A stretch of 29,595 nucleotides of DNA from Bdellovibrionota bacterium (GTDB lineage: Bacteria > Bdellovibrionota_C > UBA2361 > JBIKWN01). Of the stretch, positions 15,909-26,560 are shown one piece after another (the first letter of the stretch is position 1; each line of letters starts with the position of its first letter). The stretch lies in assembly GCA_044356295.1 (NCBI GenBank), contig JBIKWN010000031.1:1-29595 (forward strand), given 5' to 3'. The position numbers and the translations under genes are program-made. Below the pieces are notes generated by a model, which did no database searches, was not told where the DNA came from, and worked only from the letters and a program-made list of their open reading frames with translations.

Positions 15909-17954
15909 ATGCAACAAGAAGTACTAAAAGAACTAGAACTTGAGCAGTCGATTTTATCGAACACTGTTTCAGTAATATCTGAGCAAATTACAGCAGCTCA
16001 TAATAAGCTCAATCTTGAAAATTCGAGGGCACAAGAATTAACCCAAGCAATCATGCATACACAGCGGGAGGAGGACAAAGCCCTTTTGGCGAGTGATGAG
16101 GCTGTCTCACACGGACTCCGAGACCAGAAAAAAATTGAGACAACTACCCTTGCTGCTCAAATAAAAAAACCTTACTTCGCGCGTATAGAGCTTGAAGAAG
16201 AGGATATCCGTACAGGAAAAACCAGGCCGATTGAATATAAATTAGGATTTGCTGCAAATCCTGATTGCAGAATTATAGATTGGCGAAAAGCTCCTATTTC
16301 CAAACTCTATTACGAATATAAAGAAGGTGAAGAATACACTGAAGAGATCTTAGGCAAAGAAAGAATTGGCGTCGTTAAAAAACGAAACCAAATTGAGATC
16401 GAAAATAGCATCTTAAAATCGGTAAATAATCGTCACGGGAATTTTTATTGGGATCCGAATAAACAAGAATGGATCTCAAAAGGTGGCGCTCGTTCGGCCC
16501 GAGCTGCTTCAGGTCAACTTCCTGAAATTCTCTCTTTAATCTCTGCCCAGCAATTTCGATCGATAACCGAAGATGCAACGACTGCAGTTCTTATTCAAGG
16601 TGTTGCAGGAAGCGGAAAAACAACGGTAGCAATTCACCGTCTTGCTTGGATGCTTCATGAAGATAATTCATCTATTACATCAAATGAAACTGCTTTTATT
16701 GTTTTAAGCCCCTCGCTTCGCGCTTATATACAAAACTCACTTCCTGCAGTTGGCATTCAAGATGTAAAAGTTCACACGTATCATGAATGGGCGGCACGAA
16801 CTATAAAATTTGCTTCTGGGGCTTCTGATTTTGTATTAGCTCGTCCGATTAATCCTGCTCCTGCGGGAATTGACCGTGTTAAAAAATCGATGGCTCTGCT
16901 TAAAGCAGTTGAAGCTTTTGTGAGCAAACAAGAGGATAAACACTTCCGCACTACTCTTGCTCACTTACAAGGTGACTTGCTTGCCATTTTCAAGATGCCA
17001 CAAGTCATTATTGATCATGACGAAACTCGACTGATTACGGCTCCGCTCATTCAAGAAACATTCGACCGTAGTCGTCGAAATTTTTCAGAGAGTTTATTTG
17101 ACTGGGCAGATGATGCACTACTTCTTCATTTGTACCAATTAAAAGTTGGCTCTGTCATTAATGAAGAACTTCGACCAGGAAAATACCGACATCTGTTTGT
17201 TGATGAAGTGCAAGATTTCTCACCAGTTGAACTTGCCACTGTTATTAGTGCCGTCAAAAAAGCAAGTGATGTAACTCTTGTAGGTGATATTTCTCAGAAT
17301 CTTGACTCGAACCAATCATTCCCTGGTTGGGAGAAACTGCAAAAGCATTGGAATCTTCATAGCGAAATTTCAAAATATATTTCGCTCTCTGTCAGTTACC
17401 GATCAACTGCACAAATTATGAAACTTGCTGCCTTTATACAAGGGCAAGGGGAATCCTCTGTTACTGCCGGAAGACAGGGGCGCCCTCCGATATGGTTTCT
17501 CTGCAAACATGAAGAAGATGCAATCGGAGCATCGATTAAATGGCTTAAAAAAGCTGTAGAATATTACCCAAATGCTTTAACTGCTGTAATTTGTGCAACA
17601 CAGAAAGAAGCAAAATTTTTGGTAAAAATGCTCACTCCGACTTTTGGACCACTCGTTCGTTTAGGCGATGCGCACTCTTTTAGTTTTGAAGAAGGCATTC
17701 TTGTTACTGACATCAAACAAGTTAAGGGCTTAGAGTTTTTCTCTGTGCTTCTATGGAATCCAAATAAAGAAAGCTTTCCCAATACACAACTTGGTAAAAA
17801 TTTTCTCTATGTTGCTGTGACACGCGCCGAAGAAAATCTTTCAATAGTATCGTGGGGTCGTCAAACTGAGCTGCTGCCGCGATTTGGGAAGAATAAACTT
17901 ATTCGGTCGATGGATCTTACAATTGAGGACGAGGAAGAGTCGGACGAGTCCTAA
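15909..17954 (+). CDS. HelD-like (UvrD/SF1 family) RNA-polymerase-associated ATPase
   Basis: N-terminal coiled coil, then KPYFARI and IIDWRKAPISKLYY (HelD-type). Walker A QGVAGSGKT, VDEVQD, VGD.SQ, SYRST, KGLEF, LYVAVTRA. Confidence 0.82.
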   Translation: MQQEVLKELELEQSILSNTVSVISEQITAAHNKLNLENSRAQELTQAIMHTQREEDKALLASDEAVSHGLRDQKKIETTTLAAQIKKPYFARIELEEEDIRTGKTRPIEYKLGFAANPDCRIIDWRKAPISKLYYEYKEGEEYTEEILGKERIGVVKKRNQIEIENSILKSVNNRHGNFYWDPNKQEWISKGGARSARAASGQLPEILSLISAQQFRSITEDATTAVLIQGVAGSGKTTVAIHRLAWMLHEDNSSITSNETAFIVLSPSLRAYIQNSLPAVGIQDVKVHTYHEWAARTIKFASGASDFVLARPINPAPAGIDRVKKSMALLKAVEAFVSKQEDKHFRTTLAHLQGDLLAIFKMPQVIIDHDETRLITAPLIQETFDRSRRNFSESLFDWADDALLLHLYQLKVGSVINEELRPGKYRHLFVDEVQDFSPVELATVISAVKKASDVTLVGDISQNLDSNQSFPGWEKLQKHWNLHSEISKYISLSVSYRSTAQIMKLAAFIQGQGESSVTAGRQGRPPIWFLCKHEEDAIGASIKWLKKAVEYYPNALTAVICATQKEAKFLVKMLTPTFGPLVRLGDAHSFSFEEGILVTDIKQVKGLEFFSVLLWNPNKESFPNTQLGKNFLYVAVTRAEENLSIVSWGRQTELLPRFGKNKLIRSMDLTIEDEEESDES

Positions 17955-18049
17955 TAGAACGTATTAACTAATAACTCATAAAAATCATTGGGCAAACATA
18001 TATATACTTTCGGTAGAGTAGCTTCCAAGTTCCTAGTATCATACATGAT

Positions 18050-20308
18050 ATGTTACGGAATGAGCCAATAATAAGTAAGCAGGCGGTGCATAAAGCATCT
18101 GGGACTATTTCTCTTGCAGAAGCAACTAAGGAATTAACCACATTCTTTCATGAAACTTTCTCTCCTTTAATGGCAGATAACGTTCTCACTCGTAAAGAAG
18201 TTAGAAATCTTGGACGTGAACTCGGAAAAAAATTAATTACCATCTCAGCTATACTTACAAATCAGAACGACCTTCCCTCGTTAATCCTAGTTGTCGCTGA
18301 ACTTTTTGACAAAAATATACAATTACCTGTTGATAAATCAGCGGCATGGGGTAATTTTACAAAGGGCTTTACTGGCGATTCCGGAAGCTTACTAAGCGCA
18401 TTCGAACGAAATAAAATAATCAACCAAGCGGAAGAAGATGCGCCCCAATTCGCTGCAATGTTTTTTCGACATTCAGCACTAGAAACAGAATCAAAGAAAA
18501 ATTCATTCCATAAAATTAACCAATTACTTAATAAACTCTTTCCTGAGCTTTCCGAAGCTACCCGTACTACGATTGGCTTATCAATGTACAACATGTCTCG
18601 CCTGAAGAAAGAACTCCTTCAAGAACAAACGACTACCAGAAAACTTGAAACGACAGATGAAGCACAAATTTATTTAGAAAATTCCTTTTTAAGAGATTTT
18701 GAACAAAGACTAACACCGGCACTCAAATCTCATAAAGACTACTCGCCAGAATGGCTCTGTTCAACAGTTCAAAAAATTGCACGTTTAGGCGCTGTCTATG
18801 ATAAGGCAGCATACCGTATTAATTGTGGTCAGAAAGTTCAAGCTAAGAAAAAAATGAGAACATTCATGCATAAGCACCACCTTTTTTTTCAACTCAACAA
18901 CCCTGAAAAAATTGATGTGGCAATATGCCCAGAAACACGTTCATTTGCTTCAGCACTTGTCAGTAGAGGTTCATATATTGCAAAACTTTTCCTCGATACA
19001 ATCGTAAGCTATCCGCAAAATTTACAAAAAATAATCGCTTTTGGTGACACGCAATCACTTCAAAGCAATATGGCTCTACTGAATTTAGAACAAGATATTC
19101 CCGCACCCTACCCTTCATGGCATAGCCTTAGAGCATATGTTTGGAAAGAATTTTTACGTTTAGGACTTCGGTGCTTAACCGAAGAACCGAAAGAACATCA
19201 AAGTCATATTTCGACAAGCTTAGACATCGCATTACTGAGTGAATTTATCTTCCGTCAAGTTGCATTAACAGAATTTAATCACCTTGCTGATATACATGGA
19301 AAACCAACATGCTCGTTTGCTTTCTTTATTGGAGGAGCAAATGCAAGACGTGAATATCCAACGTTTGATTATGATTCATATTGTGTTTATGAATCAGATG
19401 GAAGTACGATTTCAAATCAAACAAACCATACCACAATCCCTCACAAGGATTTTTTTATAAAATTAAATGAGAACATTGCAAAGACGCTACGAACACTTGG
19501 TGCAGATTTTGATTCTGGGTTTCTTCCATGCGATCCAGTGAGTCATGAACTTTTTTGGGCAATATCAACAGATGATTTTAAAAACCTAATTGCAAAATCA
19601 ACCGATGCACATCTTGAGTTAAGGTTACGAATCAATCAAAGGTTAATTTTTGGTGATGCACCTTTTTCGGAACAATTTCAAAAGTGGATCGATCAAGAAG
19701 TACAAGCACGGCGACAACATATTCTCTCTACTCGATTCAAGGAAATAGAAAAATTATCGATTCCTTCTCATTTAGAAAAGCTCAATCTAAAACTAAGCCC
19801 TGGAGGCCTACGACAAGGTGTCCTTCTTTGGCAAACATGCTCATGTATATTCTCTACTCATTTTTCGAGCATGTCTGAATTCGCAAATTTTTTACAGCAA
19901 AAACAATTTATATCTGAAGCTGAAAAAATATTTTTTTTAAATGCCTATGACTTCTTGTTAATTTCACGAGCACGGATGGATATGCAGTATGGAAGAAACG
20001 CAAAATATATACCCCATGGTGATGAATTAGTAGCTTTTGCAAAAAGCATTGGATACCACCATTCAAGAATTTTGCCCGCAGATATTGCTTATCTTAATGA
20101 CCTTGACGAAAAGATGTCTGTGGTGAGTAACTTTTGTCTCAAGACATTGTCCCAAATTCGTGATTTCGTTCTCGAGCAAGAAAACATAGATATATCTGAT
20201 TCATCCGAAGCTGATAAACTTGCCACTATTACCGACAGAAAACGAGAAGAATATTTAGCAATACAAGCATTTCGAACTGAAACTGGCTTTGGTGAGTTCT
20301 TCCACTAG
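18050..20308 (+). CDS. putative GlnE/GlnD-like protein nucleotidyltransferase with unrecognised N-terminal half
   Basis: 752 aa. C-terminal half has FAFFIGGANARREYPTFDYDSYCVY (pol-beta-like G...DxD), RLIFGD, NLKLSPGGLR and AYDFL, in the same order as in GlnE/GlnD domains. Confidence 0.62.
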   Translation: MLRNEPIISKQAVHKASGTISLAEATKELTTFFHETFSPLMADNVLTRKEVRNLGRELGKKLITISAILTNQNDLPSLILVVAELFDKNIQLPVDKSAAWGNFTKGFTGDSGSLLSAFERNKIINQAEEDAPQFAAMFFRHSALETESKKNSFHKINQLLNKLFPELSEATRTTIGLSMYNMSRLKKELLQEQTTTRKLETTDEAQIYLENSFLRDFEQRLTPALKSHKDYSPEWLCSTVQKIARLGAVYDKAAYRINCGQKVQAKKKMRTFMHKHHLFFQLNNPEKIDVAICPETRSFASALVSRGSYIAKLFLDTIVSYPQNLQKIIAFGDTQSLQSNMALLNLEQDIPAPYPSWHSLRAYVWKEFLRLGLRCLTEEPKEHQSHISTSLDIALLSEFIFRQVALTEFNHLADIHGKPTCSFAFFIGGANARREYPTFDYDSYCVYESDGSTISNQTNHTTIPHKDFFIKLNENIAKTLRTLGADFDSGFLPCDPVSHELFWAISTDDFKNLIAKSTDAHLELRLRINQRLIFGDAPFSEQFQKWIDQEVQARRQHILSTRFKEIEKLSIPSHLEKLNLKLSPGGLRQGVLLWQTCSCIFSTHFSSMSEFANFLQQKQFISEAEKIFFLNAYDFLLISRARMDMQYGRNAKYIPHGDELVAFAKSIGYHHSRILPADIAYLNDLDEKMSVVSNFCLKTLSQIRDFVLEQENIDISDSSEADKLATITDRKREEYLAIQAFRTETGFGEFFH

Positions 20309-20328
20309 CATGATTAAAAATCTCTTAT

Positions 20329-20357
20329 TTGAAAGGCTGTCTTATTTTAGCTATAGT
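20329..20357 (+). promoter_or_regulatory. sigma70 promoter of the tRNA gene
   Basis: TTGAAA (20329-20334), 17-nt spacer, TATAGT (20352-20357), 16 nt upstream of the tRNA. Confidence 0.7.
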
Positions 20358-20373
20358 GTATCACTCATGCCCT

Positions 20374-20456
20374 GCCCGGGTGATGGAATGGTAGACATAC
20401 AGGACTTAAAATCCTGGGATCGCAAGATCGTGCGGGTTCAAGTCCCGCCCTGGGCA
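20374..20456 (+). tRNA. tRNA-Leu (anticodon TAA)
   Basis: Acceptor GCCCGGG/CCTGGGC plus discriminator A, D-loop GGAATGGTAGAC, anticodon arm CAGGA-CTTAAAA-TCCTG, long variable arm GATC-GCAA-GATC, T arm GCGGG-TTCAAGT-CCCGC. CCA not encoded. Confidence 0.97.
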
Positions 20457-20536
20457 TTAAATTTTTCTTGATTACCTTCTGTATTAATTATTAATTTTAC
20501 GGATAGTGGCTTTAAAGCCCGATGATCAAAAGGAAT

Positions 20537-20790
20537 GAATTCTGTTTACTTTTTGGAAACCCAAAGTAAAAACATCAAAAAAAAATGGGTGTATTGCTGG
20601 GAGAGCCAATAGTACAATACACCCAAGTTGGCTTATCTCTCTCACTATTTTGCATTCTCAAAAGAAAATTACTCAAGTGTTAAGGTAAAGAGCCTGTAGA
20701 GAGGGTTCATAAACGCTACAAAAGTTTCATGAGAAACCACTCTAACGTTTATAAACCCAAAAACCTTCCAAGTGTTGATAAACAGAATTC
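20537..20790 (-). ncRNA. putative structured ncRNA of unknown family, copy 1
   Basis: 12-bp terminal inverted repeat (20537-20548 / 20779-20790). Stems 20703-20715/20746-20758 and 20586-20596/20615-20625. Plus-strand C.A mismatches become G.U pairs on the minus strand. Has its own promoter. Confidence 0.7.
20577..20625 (-). terminator. terminator-like hairpin inside ncRNA copy 1
   Basis: 11-bp stem TGGGTGTATTG/CAATACACCCA followed by T9 on the minus strand. Confidence 0.6.
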
Positions 20791-20796
20791 AAGTAG

Positions 20797-20824
20797 AGAG
20801 TAACAGACTAGTGAAGTTACTCAA
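20797..20824 (-). promoter_or_regulatory. sigma70-type promoter of ncRNA copy 1
   Basis: TTGAGT, 16-nt spacer ending TGt, TACTCT, then 6 nt to the first base of the terminal helix; same geometry as copy 2. Confidence 0.6.
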
Positions 20825-20827
20825 GTA

Positions 20828-20925
20828 CTAAATGACTTTACGGTCAATCGCATATGGTCCCCTATGCCTGACAGGTTGCCATTATCTCGACTGAATTTAC
20901 GTTAAGATGATCTAGAAGGGATGAA
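20828..20925 (-). pseudogene. displaced duplicate of the last ~32 codons of the SDR gene
   Basis: 20864-20925 matches 21235-21296 at 60/62 nt. After a 1-nt insertion it continues GGA CCA TAT GCG ATT GAC CGT AAA GTC ATT TAG (GPYAIDRKVI*), versus GSYAIHREAI* in the gene. Confidence 0.85.
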
Positions 20926-21162
20926 TTCTGTTTACGTATGGAAACCATAAGTAAACCTTAAAAAAATGGGTGCATTGCGGAAGGGAACCAAAACAATACA
21001 CCCCATGTAACTATCTCTCTCACTTTTTTGCTTGTCGGTCACTCAAGTGTGTAGGGGAGATCAGCCTATAGAGAGGGTTCATAAACGTCACAAAAGTTTT
21101 TAAAAAACTTATCTAACGTTTACAAACCCAAGAACCTTACAGATAGTACATAAACAGAATTC
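20923..21162 (-). ncRNA. putative structured ncRNA of unknown family, copy 2
   Basis: Terminal inverted repeat 20923-20934 / 21151-21162, extending to 16 bp with one G.U on the minus strand. Stems 21075-21087/21117-21129 and 20968-20977/20994-21003. Has its own promoter. Confidence 0.7.
20960..21003 (-). terminator. terminator-like hairpin inside ncRNA copy 2
   Basis: GGGTGTATTG/CAATGCACCC stem (one G.U) followed by A-T7 on the minus strand. Confidence 0.6.
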
Positions 21163-21168
21163 CCTCCT

Positions 21169-21196
21169 ATCGTAACAGAGTTAATGAGATACTCAA
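21169..21196 (-). promoter_or_regulatory. sigma70-type promoter of ncRNA copy 2
   Basis: TTGAGT (21196-21191), 16-nt spacer ending TGt, TACGAT (21174-21169), then 6 nt to the first base of the terminal helix. Confidence 0.68.
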
Positions 21197-21199
21197 GCC

Positions 21200-21949
21200 T
21201 TATATGGCTTCGCGGTGAATGGCGTAGGATCCCCATGCCTGACAGGTTGCCATTATCTCGAGTGAATTTACGTTAAGATGATCTGGAAGGGATGAAAGCC
21301 AAAGAATAGTAGAGGCAATATCGTTAGGAGTAATTGGCTTTGTGCCTTTATAAACTTCTGATGCTTTTAGTCCATCACCTTTGAATCGAGTGTTCGAGAA
21401 TTCAGTTTCAGCCAATCCTGGTTCCAAGCTAGTAACCCTGACATTTGTTCCAAGGAGTTCTGCCTTTAAATTACGTGAAAAATGATGAACAAAAGCTTTT
21501 GTTGCCCCGTAAACATTTCCACCAGGGTATGGCCAATTACCTGCGATTGAACCGATATTTACAATCAATCCTTTATTCTCTTTAACCATAAAGGGAAGTA
21601 CTAAACGAGTGACTGTTGCAAGCCCGCGAATATTTACATCAATCATCGAATCCCAGTCATCCAGATTTGCCTCAGAAGCTTTGTCTAAGCCTAAGGCAAA
21701 TCCAGCATTATTAACAAGGAGATCAGGAGCGCCATGATTTTTGCAGTACGCCTCTAGTACTTGCTGACATGAATCCCTATGGCTGACATCCAATGTCTCA
21801 AAAGAGATATTACTATTGGTATCAGCTAGAGTCTGAAGCCGGTCAGTTCTTCGCGCCAACGCGAAAACTGACCAGCCATGTTCTGCGAAAACTTTTGCAG
21901 TCTCAAATCCAAACCCAGAACTTGCACCAGTGATAATTATTTTTTTCAA
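21200..21949 (-). CDS. short-chain dehydrogenase/reductase, YdfG-like NADP-dependent 3-hydroxy acid dehydrogenase
   Basis: ITGASSGFG, LARR, LVNNAG, NIGSIAG.WPYPGGNVYGATK (YxxxK), TEFS..RFKGD; TTG start. Confidence 0.9.
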   Translation of the reverse strand: MKKIIITGASSGFGFETAKVFAEHGWSVFALARRTDRLQTLADTNSNISFETLDVSHRDSCQQVLEAYCKNHGAPDLLVNNAGFALGLDKASEANLDDWDSMIDVNIRGLATVTRLVLPFMVKENKGLIVNIGSIAGNWPYPGGNVYGATKAFVHHFSRNLKAELLGTNVRVTSLEPGLAETEFSNTRFKGDGLKASEVYKGTKPITPNDIASTILWLSSLPDHLNVNSLEIMATCQAWGSYAIHREAI

Positions 21950-21961
21950 AGCAAATATTAC

Positions 21962-22483
21962 TTAATTTAAGTTAGTACGTGGACTAAATTTATTTAAACA
22001 AACACGAGCAAGAGGATCGTTGCCCGCATTGGGAATATCTTTAAACTTAATTGTTAAACGAGTAGCACCTCTTAAAATAGAGCTCGTGCCTGTCTCGCCG
22101 AAACAACATATTTGCTGTCCAGGTGTACGAATAACTTTCTGACATTTAAACGCACTGCATTTATTTAATCCATCAGCAGTTTCTTCAGCACTGCAATCAT
22201 TATAACCAGATGCAGGCCATCTATCTCTATTTTGATTATCTCTTAGAACGACGCTAAATGAACTGGCATACGATCCCGAAAGAATAGCACCAGCTTTTCC
22301 ACCACATGCCCTAACCGAGGGACGATATCTAATCTGTTTAGGAACTTCATTTGCACAGATACAAGGTTTAAATCGTGAGTTTTTAAATTCCTTACATTTT
22401 GCATCGGGGAGTGTTTGCGCCTGGAGTAATGACGCTGGTAAAAGTGCTATACAAAATAGAAATGCAAAGAGAGAGTTTTTCAT
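21962..22483 (-). CDS. secreted cysteine-rich hypothetical protein (paralog A)
   Basis: 173 aa; signal peptide; 10 Cys in the mature region; aligns over the whole mature domain with 22642..23244. Confidence 0.85.
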   Translation of the reverse strand: MKNSLFAFLFCIALLPASLLQAQTLPDAKCKEFKNSRFKPCICANEVPKQIRYRPSVRACGGKAGAILSGSYASSFSVVLRDNQNRDRWPASGYNDCSAEETADGLNKCSAFKCQKVIRTPGQQICCFGETGTSSILRGATRLTIKFKDIPNAGNDPLARVCLNKFSPRTNLN

Positions 22484-22641: not shown

Positions 22642-23244
22642 ATGCTTTTTAGCAAGTCACTCTTCTCTGCTCCATGCACATTATTATTGTTAGTAAGTAT
22701 TGTTTTTTTTGCTCCCTATACCAATGCACAGGTGACAACAGTTGCAAAAATTTTAGCAGAACGTGACACAACTACTCCTAATAAAAAGAAACCACGATAT
22801 TGCACAGGTGGAGCAATTAGATTTAAGCGATGTGTTTGCGCTCCTGACGTAACAAAACGTGTACAATACCGCCCAATAGTTAAAGAATGCGGCCGTAAGG
22901 CAGCAATTATCCTTAACGGCACCTATGCATCAGCATTTAGTGCCGTTGTTAGGAACGTTGAAAATGCCGATCGTATTCCAAAAAACGCTCTCATCAATGG
23001 ATGCTCAATTTATGACCGAGATACGCTAGGATTAAATAAATGTAGCGTTTACAAAGCACAGAAAGTACTTAAGTACGAAGATGAGCGTGGTACCGTATCC
23101 GTTCATTGCCTTGGTGCTCCGGGAACTTCTAGTTACTTCAAAAATGCACGTCGAATTACAGTAAAACTTGGTGACGCACCAGATTCCACAAACGATCCGA
23201 TTGCAAGACTTTGTTTAGCTGGTCCAACAAAGAACCTAAACTAA
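22642..23244 (+). CDS. secreted cysteine-rich hypothetical protein (paralog B)
   Basis: 200 aa; signal peptide; 8 Cys in the mature region; shares RFK.C.CA, YRP, CG.KA, GLNKCS, DP.AR.CL and the NLN end with paralog A. Confidence 0.85.
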   Translation: MLFSKSLFSAPCTLLLLVSIVFFAPYTNAQVTTVAKILAERDTTTPNKKKPRYCTGGAIRFKRCVCAPDVTKRVQYRPIVKECGRKAAIILNGTYASAFSAVVRNVENADRIPKNALINGCSIYDRDTLGLNKCSVYKAQKVLKYEDERGTVSVHCLGAPGTSSYFKNARRITVKLGDAPDSTNDPIARLCLAGPTKNLN

Positions 23245-25954: not shown

Positions 25955-26560
25955 TTAGGCACCTTTTAAGTACTTCTCGAGATCGTCGATTTTCATTGCT
26001 TCTATAGCCGCTTTGAGATCCTCTGTTTTAACAGCTCCTTTACCTTCAACGTTGAGCATCGAACCGCCATCAAGGAAAAGTGTTAATTTTGGCTCACTTC
26101 CAGTTGAATCAAGCTGTGCAGTGCGACCATTAATTCGCACAGATTCAATACCATTTTGACCACCAAACATTGCTGCCATTGAACCTAACTGCGCCAAACC
26201 TCCAAGCGCTCCACCTGCAGCTGACCCAAGATTAGTAAGAGCGATTTGAAAACCGTCCTTACCTTTCATATAGGTTCGCTCAATATTTGTCATGCCAAGG
26301 GCGCCACCCGTATTAATCTTTGAACCAGTAAATCCATTCAAAGAATCAGGGAAGAATGTTTCTATTTTTTTAGCGTTTAGTTTTTCAATTTCTTTTGAAG
26401 CCCATTTCAGCTCTTCAAGCGCCTTAGAATAATCTCCAGATGAAACAAGAGTTTTCACCTTAGTAAAGATAGGATCGAGTTCTTCGGCTCGAACCACTTG
26501 AGAGCACAGTAATGTTGCAGCCAAAATTCCTACAGAAGTAATATTTAAAATAGTTTTCAT
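25955..26560 (-). CDS. exported hypothetical protein
   Basis: 201 aa; signal peptide ending VRA; no family recognised; co-oriented with neighbours. Confidence 0.75.
   Translation of the reverse strand: MKTILNITSVGILAATLLCSQVVRAEELDPIFTKVKTLVSSGDYSKALEELKWASKEIEKLNAKKIETFFPDSLNGFTGSKINTGGALGMTNIERTYMKGKDGFQIALTNLGSAAGGALGGLAQLGSMAAMFGGQNGIESVRINGRTAQLDSTGSEPKLTLFLDGGSMLNVEGKGAVKTEDLKAAIEAMKIDDLEKYLKGA

Follow-up and report, generated by a model that had tools for sequence, protein, structure and literature searches.

A tandemly duplicated structured element behind an SDR gene of an uncultured Bdellovibrionota bacterium: a candidate RNA module of the gene's 3' region

In the 742-nt gap between a tRNA-Leu gene and the open reading frame of an SDR protein, an uncultured lake bacterium carries two homologous, highly structured elements, X1 and X2 (hereafter collectively called X). 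We propose with moderate confidence that X represents a structured RNA module of the SDR 3' region, specific to the lineage, read on the minus (SDR-sense) strand and kept by selection. Both copies retain the helices of X, and the loops, the spacer and the end of a duplicated pseudo-frame have decayed. The pair had been described in an original prediction, and our analyses of the window (the whole 29,595-nt stretch) confirmed the two elements with the coordinates given there (Table 1).

The prediction regarded X1 and X2 as free-standing elements. They are indeed homologous, but the homology continues beyond them, positions 20505-20925 aligning with 20891-21300, and the locus is instead a tandem duplication that includes the tail of the SDR gene. 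It comprises ~2.07 tandem units with a direct-repeat period of 371-386 nt, alignable over 429 columns, and each unit consists of the last ~98 nt of the SDR frame, a spacer of 37-38 nt and X. Because each unit also harbours a copy of the end of the frame, a local duplication accounts for the pair, rather than two insertions. The beginning of the duplicated tail occurs a third time, incompletely: ~17 nt are clearly alike and the likeness is gone further on (alignment columns 398-415); over 33 columns of the pairwise comparison, 20 are the same, 11 are different and 2 are gaps, with the matches mainly in the first 17. The SDR protein matches the NCBIfam YdfG model at E = 5e-86 over residues 4-247, under the cut-off of the model. 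Contigs of a second metagenome run contain both copies with 0 differences, so that the pair is not an assembly artefact. The contigs of four sequencing runs contain no joined or single-unit form in the parts that they cover.

Table 1. Features of the tRNA-Leu/SDR intergenic region and its flanks (positions in the window)
Feature	Position	Strand	Remarks
Sigma-70-like box TTGAAA-17-TATAGT	20329-20357		near tRNA-Leu; promoter scan
tRNA-Leu(UAA)	20373..20457	+	convergent with the SDR gene, region boundary; ARAGORN; Rfam tRNA 57.6 bits
Incomplete third copy (beginning of the duplicated SDR tail)	20505..20536	-	directly after X1
X1	20537..20790	-	254 nt; CM R1 295.8 bits
X1, P1 arms	20537-20549 / 20778-20790, or 20536-20548 / 20779-20791		13 nt
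X1, U9 run	20577-20585
X1, P4	20587-20624		GC hairpin
X1, P3	20638-20702		junction
X1, P2	20703-20758		hairpin
Spacer of unit 1	20791..20828	-	two conserved octamers: -35-like TTGAGT 20819-20824; TGT+TACTCT 20797-20805
Pseudo-copy of the SDR frame end (last ~98 nt)	20829..20925	-	includes D1' 20860-20925
X2	20923..21162	-	240 nt; CM R1 272.6 bits
X2, P1 arms	21147-21162 + 20923-20938
X2, P5	~20930-20956		hairpin
X2, U7 run	20960-20966
X2, P4	20968-21003
X2, P3	21016-21074
X2, P2	21075-21129
Spacer of unit 2	21163..21199	-	SDR stop to X2; TTGAGT 21191-21196; TGT+TACGAT 21169-21177
SDR gene	21200..21949	-	YdfG-like, 249 aa; the duplicated tail derives from its last ~98 nt (21200-21297); D1 at 21231-21296

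RNAalifold applied to X1 and X2 yielded 63 pairs. The closing stem of the prediction corresponds to P1 (13 bp in the consensus), with perfect arms in X1 and arms of 16 nt at 94% in X2. The predicted 16-bp stem is a contiguous run within P2, an irregular hairpin of about 23-24 bp, and its compensatory change was recovered as one double change from C-G to U-A (columns 59/64). The three-way junction (UCUCU/AGAGA, AGG/CCU and CACU/AGUG) also appears in the RNAalifold model; none of its three helices varies between the copies, and it is therefore a prediction only. P4 is a GC hairpin of 11-12 bp (11 bp in RNAalifold; -18.6 and -17.6 kcal/mol in X1 and X2, respectively), followed by A and U9 or U7, as had been proposed. 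The last hairpin of the prediction is strong in X2 only (-10.1 kcal/mol, z = -3.9) and weak in X1 (-6.4 kcal/mol, z = -0.45).

Both copies fold far better than shuffled sequences. As minus-strand RNA, X1 and X2 reach minimum free energies of -82.9 and -78.5 kcal/mol (z = -6.6 and -6.2), equalled by 0 of 200 shuffles; plus-strand RNA reaches -64.6 and -60.0 kcal/mol (z = -4.8 and -4.3). Folded alone, P2 gives -31.1 and -26.7 kcal/mol (z = -8.7 and -7.9). With DNA parameters, the values are -37.0 and -35.3 for the minus strand (z = -4.9 for both) versus -35.2 and -31.6 for the plus strand (z = -4.4 and -4.1). The advantage of the minus strand thus amounts to 18 kcal/mol with RNA parameters and to 2-4 kcal/mol with DNA parameters. 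Because the strand asymmetry is large with RNA energies and almost gone with DNA energies, an RNA of minus polarity is favoured.

These figures also bear on the idea that X acts as single-stranded DNA, with a structure of minus polarity that would serve as the substrate of an IS200/IS605-type or integron-type recombinase or as a single-strand origin. The fold is strand-specific, and the genome encodes four Y1_Tnp-like ORFs, two of them over the Pfam cut-off. However, the strands fold almost alike with DNA parameters, X is repeated nowhere else in the genome, and there is no recombinase gene nearby. The ends of IS200/IS605 elements are not known to have terminal inverted repeats. We give this explanation hardly any credence.

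The favoured RNA module reading is further supported by the manner in which the two copies have diverged. Within the shared helices, 9 of 126 paired columns differ (7%) and every pair is kept, seven via G.U and one through the double change; 55 of the 63 pairs are invariant. The 131 unpaired columns contain 48 substitutions in 111 aligned positions (43%), plus 20 gaps. This contrast is highly significant (Fisher p = 4e-11), with a structure derived from the same two sequences; in the less circular procedure of folding one copy and scoring the other, p values are 5e-4 and 3e-3 for the minus strand and 0.066 and 0.022 for the plus strand. As predicted, the only helix defects seen on the minus strand are G.U, 6 and 7 per copy, and there is no A.C; counted as distinct sites, there are 10 G.U versus 0 A.C (binomial p = 0.002). 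The covariation test has no power with two sequences, and its single double change is matched by 258 of 500 shuffles. The claim of selection on a minus-strand RNA structure thus draws support from the conserved helices and decayed loops, the G.U-only defects and the RNA-energy asymmetry, but none from covariation, and the contrast is weaker when one copy is folded alone.

The same comparison weighs on a neutral explanation, in which a tandem duplication of the SDR tail and terminator region is decaying and function is limited to the original terminator. The tandem build, the out-of-frame pseudo-tail and the lack of homologues and of a conserved ORF would be expected of such a duplication, and tail-containing repeats at the same locus in a same-genus genome suggest that duplications of this kind are common here. 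Neutral decay should nevertheless strike stems and loops equally, contrary to the 7% and the 43% plus 20 gaps reported above; in addition, 0 of 9 helix changes break a pair, and both arms of every helix are conserved together. Neutral decay therefore appears improbable to us.

P4 and its U-run, which precede the 3' arm of P1 by 30-40 nt, resemble an intrinsic terminator. The terminator scan is empty here, as it allows loops of no more than 8 nt and those of P4 measure 16-18 nt. Since the terminator-like signal precedes the 3' arm of P1, the existence of a closed RNA of 240-254 nt is uncertain. No other terminator-like signal was found between the SDR stop codon (21200) and P4 + U7 of X2 (20960-21003), and by its position X2 is a candidate for the 3' UTR of the SDR gene, with the only terminator candidate of that gene. 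The spacing of the TTGAGT and TGT+ boxes in the spacer of unit 2 equals that in unit 1; these promoter-like boxes match at 8/12 and 7/12 positions, under the threshold of the promoter scan, in which they are not listed. The copy of the SDR tail in each unit, the position of P4 before the 3' arm of P1 and the place of X2 as SDR 3' UTR were all absent from the original prediction.

An RNA ending at the P4 terminator would be unable to form P1, and strict conservation of P1 would therefore suit an inverted repeat acting at the DNA level. Indeed, the P1 arms show 0 changes in 52 nt across both copies and are thus fixed in sequence, not in pairing alone. This feature fits a MITE-like element, non-autonomous and comparable to SPRITE in bearing an internal terminator, with terminal inverted repeats of 13 nt. 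Such an element would have landed once behind the SDR gene and later been duplicated with its flank, and its stems would be DNA-level inverted repeats. The review PMC10969869 describes prokaryotic MITEs with structured transcripts or terminator function, namely ERIC, Correia, SPRITE and QMITE. As presented there, they resemble X in being smaller than 500 bp (240-254 nt for X), intergenic and AT-rich (35% and 37% G+C in X), with inverted ends (arms of 13-16 nt, perfect over 13 nt in both copies), and the transcript of X is predicted to form stable stem-loops, a MITE feature listed there, including a terminator-like hairpin. X differs from those elements by the absence of a target-site duplication, of dispersal and of a parent IS, and by its one-strand tolerance of G.U. 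No short direct repeat was detected in the flanks of either copy, although the same review indicates that the flanking direct repeats of MITEs fade with age. Only two copies exist in the genome, adjacent and with flanks in common, which points to duplication rather than transposition. Nor does the genome show an enrichment of the end motif, with 17 matches at no more than one mismatch, including 4 that are the arms of X, versus 11 for the control, and the exact end-pair pattern gave 0 matches in genome_contigs and viral_contigs. As the G.U-only defects and the RNA-specific strand asymmetry are also unexpected for a DNA repeat, we consider a MITE-like origin rather unlikely.

The pseudo-copy of the SDR tail harbours a 1-nt insertion that results in in-frame stops, three in its translation, which reads SSLLDHLNVNSVEIMATCQA up to a stop, versus SSLPDHLNVNSLEIMATCQAWG and onwards for the real SDR tail. 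A same-genus SDR orthologue (74% identity) has the same C-terminal ending without any X, so the real SDR C-terminus is native. D1' is 95% identical to the real gene, and the rest of the pseudo-tail is ~30% diverged (Fisher p = 0.0015). This disparity is not explained by the RNA module reading, which needs gene conversion or an additional function to account for it. By eye, a GATAAT -10-like box is visible in D1, without a -35 box, and we do not claim it as a promoter.

The near-identity of D1' to its target, next to the ~30% divergence of the neighbouring sequence, would be consistent with a different history, in which the ~380-nt unit is a minimal integrative cassette with site-specific insertion. 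This structured module, of RNA or DNA, would restore the SDR C-terminus with its own tail copy; it would have entered the SDR gene two times, at a site of 17-20 nt, and would stack in tandem, mobilized by a recombinase that acts in trans. Like integrative elements directed at gene ends, the unit carries the tail of the gene, and the junction sequence is present three times (21278-21297, 20906-20925 and, partially, 20505-20536). However, the likeness is gone after ~17 nt of the third junction copy, with no displaced SDR tail after it, and no recombinase is encoded within the window. There is no further copy in the genome or the scanned collections, and the lack of joined or single-unit forms in the contigs of the four runs also weighs against it. 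We regard such a cassette as very unlikely; if it were true, it would represent a new kind of very small site-specific mobile element.

Returning to the RNA module, we found no known family to which it belongs, in agreement with the prediction. With Rfam 15, only tRNA reaches the gathering threshold in the whole window, and the best non-tRNA match in 20300-21500 at E up to 10 is mir-203 (21.6 bits versus a threshold of 65, E = 0.056). The covariance-model search that had been suggested was carried out with a model (CM R1) that recovers the two copies but no homologue. In the own genome, it finds the two copies, their P2 hairpins on the opposite strand and three weak matches (E 0.09-3.7). Across 141 genomes (140 relatives and the own genome), its best foreign match has E = 0.036 and 20.3 bits, and among 91 genomes of the order it identifies only the own genome and none of the 90 others. 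In a BLAST search of 61 genomes, five foreign genomes have matches of 23-41 nt; the two that were inspected lie in an AT-rich promoter region of an AKK-repeat histone-like gene and were attributed to chance. Exact-pattern scans with three motif designs, which detect near-identical motifs only and may exclude the window's own records, gave 0 matches in genome_contigs and metagenome_contigs (two scans each) and in viral_contigs (three scans), and blastn in 'distant' mode gave none against phages and plasmids.

Several other identities were considered. As predicted, no transposase, integrase, reverse transcriptase or nuclease was found among the 23 window ORFs of at least 120 aa, 3 of which have no Pfam family. 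A retron ncRNA (msr-msd) was rejected, with no RVT_1 domain in the window; the only RVT_1 match of the genome, a fragment of 175 aa, is encoded on a different contig next to Phd/ParE genes. A diversity-generating retroelement was also rejected, as the 97 mismatches are spread over all four letters instead of falling at adenines of one copy (unit 1: T 35, C 22, A 22, G 18; unit 2: C 29, T 27, A 21, G 20). For 6S RNA, there is no RF00013 match in the own genome, with a model that finds 6S in only 5 of 14 control genomes; 6S RNA folds like a rod with a central bubble, and the minus-strand folds of X1 and X2 are branched. A link to the upstream plus-strand genes was rejected; one encodes a HelD-like protein (E = 6e-55, below the cut-off of the model) and another a 752-aa protein with only a weak GlnD-type domain and no PADLOC match.

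Among known systems, X has features in common with small RNAs derived from 3' UTRs, such as the enterobacterial DapZ, MicL and CpxQ, which share the terminator of the mRNA. Like them, it is structured, lies right behind a stop codon on the strand of the gene and has a candidate end at the putative intrinsic terminator of the gene, with a promoter possible in or just behind the frame. It has no sequence relation to them, would be bigger and more elaborate, comprising ~200-250 nt with one hairpin of 24 bp and a junction, and is tandemly duplicated together with the gene tail. RtT repeats are likewise tandem units that each contain the 3' end of a gene, and in E. coli they are co-transcribed with this gene and processed to a stable RNA. 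The X units have the same design, standing in tandem behind a gene with a copy of its 3' end in each, but the gene is protein-coding and not a tRNA gene, and there is no match to RF00391. A mirrored copy of the SDR tail in the spacer, seen by eye, is unsupported as a parallel to RtT (192 and 180 of 500 shuffles score as high, and 334 and 476 of 500 in the other comparisons). The RtT repeats behind the E. coli tyrT tRNA genes correspond to rtT RNA, Rfam RF00391, an RNA mentioned in bioRxiv 10.1101/2024.07.17.603846.

Type I toxin mRNAs also occur in tandem long direct repeats (ldr, hok, aapA), and the T1TAdb paper PMC8594479 characterizes their loci by a small hydrophobic ORF and a sequestered Shine-Dalgarno sequence. 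X resembles the mRNAs described there as few-hundred-nt tandem repeats with a structured RNA of ~200-250 nt, long-distance 5'-3' pairing and a terminator-like stem-loop. It differs in that it has no Shine-Dalgarno sequence and no ORF conserved between copies, and a type I toxin-antitoxin system was therefore rejected: of the 19 ORFs that overlap 20460-21199 and reach 20 aa or more, not one is preserved in frame from one copy to the other. Two ORFs that start with GTG (39 and 21 aa) have only their ends in common, with their middles in different frames.

In the scenario that we favour, a local duplication would have generated the tandem units. X2 would be transcribed together with the SDR gene, given that no other terminator-like signal intervenes between the stop codon and its P4 + U7, and the 5' arm of P1, P2, P3 and P4 of X2 would constitute the 3' UTR and terminator of the gene. 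X1 might be reached by read-through, or be transcribed from the weak promoter-like boxes of the spacer, starting at the first base of X. Likely roles would be those of a 3' module that stabilizes and terminates the SDR transcript, of a source of a ~200-nt small RNA of the 3'-UTR type ending at P4, and of a block that keeps antisense transcription from entering the convergent tRNA-Leu gene.

The value of the finding is limited by the fact that no carrier was found outside one population, and that the organism is uncultured. If our reading is correct, X would be a large, ornate non-coding RNA without a known family and of recent origin in a single lineage, and would illustrate how a 3' UTR becomes an RNA gene through duplication. 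The two diverged paralogues, side by side, would provide a natural experiment on constraint in a young structured RNA.

Chromosomal housekeeping genes (nuo operon, aspS, murG, ftsW) fill the window, and a 742-nt gap between the convergent tRNA-Leu gene and a YdfG-like short-chain dehydrogenase gene (SDR) contains the two elements X1 and X2, together called X. The original prediction of two homologous elements in this gap held for both, but their homology is wider, as an alignment of 429 columns pairs 20505-20925 with 20891-21300, beyond the X1 and X2 bounds. Direct repeats with a 371-386-nt period run across the gap. In minus-strand order, the repeated unit begins with the final ~98 nt of the SDR frame, continues with a spacer of 37-38 nt and closes with X. 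X1 is followed by a third, incomplete copy of the beginning of the SDR piece, with ~17 nt clearly similar, bringing the number of tandem units to ~2.07.

Features of the tRNA-Leu/SDR region and helices of X (MFE in kcal/mol)
Feature	Position	Strand	Description
HelD-like and 752-aa protein genes	15909-20308	plus	
tRNA-Leu(UAA)	20373-20457	plus	
X1	20537-20790	minus	MFE as RNA: minus -82.9 (z -6.6), plus -64.6 (z -4.8); as DNA: minus -37.0 (z -4.9), plus -35.2 (z -4.4)
X2	20923-21162	minus	MFE as RNA: minus -78.5 (z -6.2), plus -60.0 (z -4.3); as DNA: minus -35.3 (z -4.9), plus -31.6 (z -4.1)
SDR	21200-21949	minus	249 aa
173-aa ORF	21962-22483	minus	directly upstream of SDR, same strand
200-aa ORF	22642-23244	plus	
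201-aa ORF	25955-26560	minus	
P1			13-nt 5' arm and 13-nt 3' arm; 16 bp in X2
P2			irregular hairpin, 23 pairs, contiguous 16-bp run
P3			small three-way junction
P4			G+C-rich hairpin, 11-12 bp, then A + U9 (X1) or A + U7 (X2)
P5			hairpin overlapping the 3' arm of P1

Translated, the SDR tail copy located between X2 and X1 gives SSLLDHLNVNSVEIMATCQA followed by a stop codon and then more stops, and the real gene product ends in SSLPDHLNVNSLEIMATCQAWGSYAIHREAI and a stop. Because the SDR orthologue of a same-genus genome, G002 (74% identity), has the same ending and no X, the real C-terminus is native. The X pair thus arose through local tandem duplication of the gene tail and its downstream region, not through two insertions. 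Over its first 66 nt (D1'), the duplicated tail matches the real gene at 95% identity, whereas the 32 nt that follow are ~30% diverged (same/different/gap counts of 63/3/1 and 22/9/1, respectively; Fisher p 0.0015). Possible reasons for the identity of D1' are gene conversion, a role in regulation or use as an attachment site. The idea that the spacer is a mirrored copy of the gene tail was tested and found unsupported.

RNAalifold identified 63 pairs common to X1 and X2 on the minus strand, and the minus-strand RNA folded better than all 200 shuffled sequences, making it very unlikely that the predicted structure is a product of chance. All five structural points of the original prediction were found, but the three junction helices never vary, and P5, strong in X2 (-10.1, z -3.9), is weak in X1 (-6.4, z -0.45). 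P2 alone reaches -31.1 and -26.7 kcal/mol (z -8.7 and -7.9). As the gap between strands is seen with RNA but not with DNA energies, G.U pairs, which are important in RNA, carry the strand difference. A single-stranded DNA element is very unlikely, since the strand asymmetry is gone under DNA parameters.

In the shared structure, 9/126 paired columns differ between the copies, and all changes preserve pairing, seven through G.U and one through a double change from C-G to U-A. Of the unpaired columns, 111 are aligned, 48 of them with differences, and 20 more are gaps (Fisher p 4e-11 relative to paired columns, a circular comparison as the same two sequences gave the structure). Because of this circularity, each copy was also evaluated against a structure predicted from the other copy by itself. 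The contrast persisted for the minus strand (p values of 5e-4 and 3e-3) and was weaker for the plus strand (0.066 and 0.022); 9/27 and 14/28 of the touched pairs still pair, many single-sequence pairs in the variable parts being lost. G.U pairs number 6 and 7 in the helices of the two copies and occupy 10 distinct sites, with A.C absent (binomial 0.002). The proposal of selection on a minus-strand RNA structure is partly supported: the helices keep their pairs with G.U and without A.C, but covariation has no power with two sequences (one double change, values reached by 258/500 shuffles, 55/63 pairs invariant). The pattern of changes suggests that a minus-strand RNA is under constraint.

P4 and its U-run resemble an intrinsic terminator situated 30-40 nt upstream of the P1 3' arm, and an RNA ending there would be unable to close P1. 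Given this order, the stems of X may represent a DNA-level inverted repeat, of which the identity of the P1 arms in X1 and X2 (0 changes in 52 nt) would be expected. The terminator scan lists no terminator at P4 owing to its 8-nt loop limit. As no other terminator-like signal was found from the SDR stop to P4 of X2, X2 is by position the putative SDR 3' UTR and candidate terminator. The spacer is ~38% diverged between units (15/39 columns differ or are gapped), with two octamers conserved at the same spacing in both. Its boxes (TTGAGT, 16 nt including TGT, TACGAT or TACTCT, then 6 nt to the first G of X) might form a weak extended -10 promoter starting RNA at the first base of X; they match only 8/12 and 7/12 promoter positions and are absent from the promoter scan listing.

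Other types of elements were considered. A type I toxin locus, as characterized in PMC8594479, was rejected, as none of the 19 small ORFs overlapping the region is conserved in frame; two GTG-started ORFs have only their ends in common. A DGR was dismissed because the 97 mismatches show no adenine bias. The ends and size of X agree with the MITE definition in PMC10969869, but we found no target duplication, dispersal or end-motif enrichment. Four Y1_Tnp-like matches, two above the Pfam cut-off, occur in G000, the genome holding the window (L039-L042; contigs C8, C102 and C79), in open frames that, at 204-336 aa, exceed the usual length of IS200-type transposases. A retron was rejected for lack of a nearby RT, the sole RVT_1 match in G000 being a 175-aa fragment on another contig. 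This fragment (at locus L038, G000:C126:349-2602) is the C-terminal half of an RT domain, adjoining Phd/YefM antitoxin and ParE-like toxin genes on a short contig.

Directly adjoining tRNA-Leu on its upstream side are genes for a 681-aa HelD-like UvrD-family helicase (HelD model E 6e-55, below cut-off) and, downstream of it, a 752-aa protein whose only recognisable domain is a weak nucleotidyltransferase match of GlnD type. We did not retain them as partners of X, one being HelD-like and the other an unknown protein without PADLOC defence-system match. For the 173-, 200- and 201-aa ORFs, Pfam gave nothing at E up to 1 save three chance-level matches on the last, and the first two also lack NCBIfam and PADLOC matches.

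In line with the predicted absence of a recognisable family, an Rfam scan matched only tRNA. The 6S RNA model RF00013 has no match in G000, which carries little weight as it matches only 5/14 control genomes. Both BLAST and R1, the covariance model built from X1 and X2, found only the two copies in G000. BLAST against 61 genomes gave five foreign matches of 23-41 nt, two of which were examined and are chance AT-rich matches. The best foreign E value of R1 on 141 genomes was 0.036, and on 91 genomes of the order it matched G000 only. Exact-pattern scans of three designs yielded zero matches in genome (two scans), metagenome (two) and viral (three) collections, as did blastn against phages and plasmids. 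One more exact copy of the 13-nt X end motif, at G000:C80:12213-12225, is probably due to chance, as no covariance model match is found there.

G002 retains the SDR-tRNA-Leu arrangement, its gap being filled by unrelated G+C-rich direct repeats of 39-56 nt (L036 2326-2535, G002:C30), three in number, each with a copy of the final 8 nt of tRNA-Leu at its end. This repeat has six matches on three G002 contigs and none in G000 or G001, another genome compared. A separate terminator-like hairpin is also present in the G002 gap. X is thus limited, as far as sampled, to one population, and this intergenic site turns over quickly.

A single contig of metagenome sequencing run X1, possibly the run behind the assembly itself, spans 20389-21900 with zero differences. 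Run X2, a second lake-water run, has contigs over 20389-20780, 20779-21164 and 21212-21479, also with zero differences and with breaks that coincide with the repeated end motif; both copies are therefore present in an independent sample. Contigs of runs X3 and X4 (depth only 2-3) have single-letter variants at 20891, 20904, 21165 and 21170, positions that fall within the pseudo-tail and the spacer of unit 2.

The initial observation is confirmed. In the most likely reading, to which we give about an even chance, the 3' region of the SDR gene carries X as a lineage-specific structured RNA module, tandem-duplicated with the gene tail. X2 would then act as the 3' UTR and terminator of the SDR gene, and X1 and X2 might each yield a small RNA of ~200 nt.
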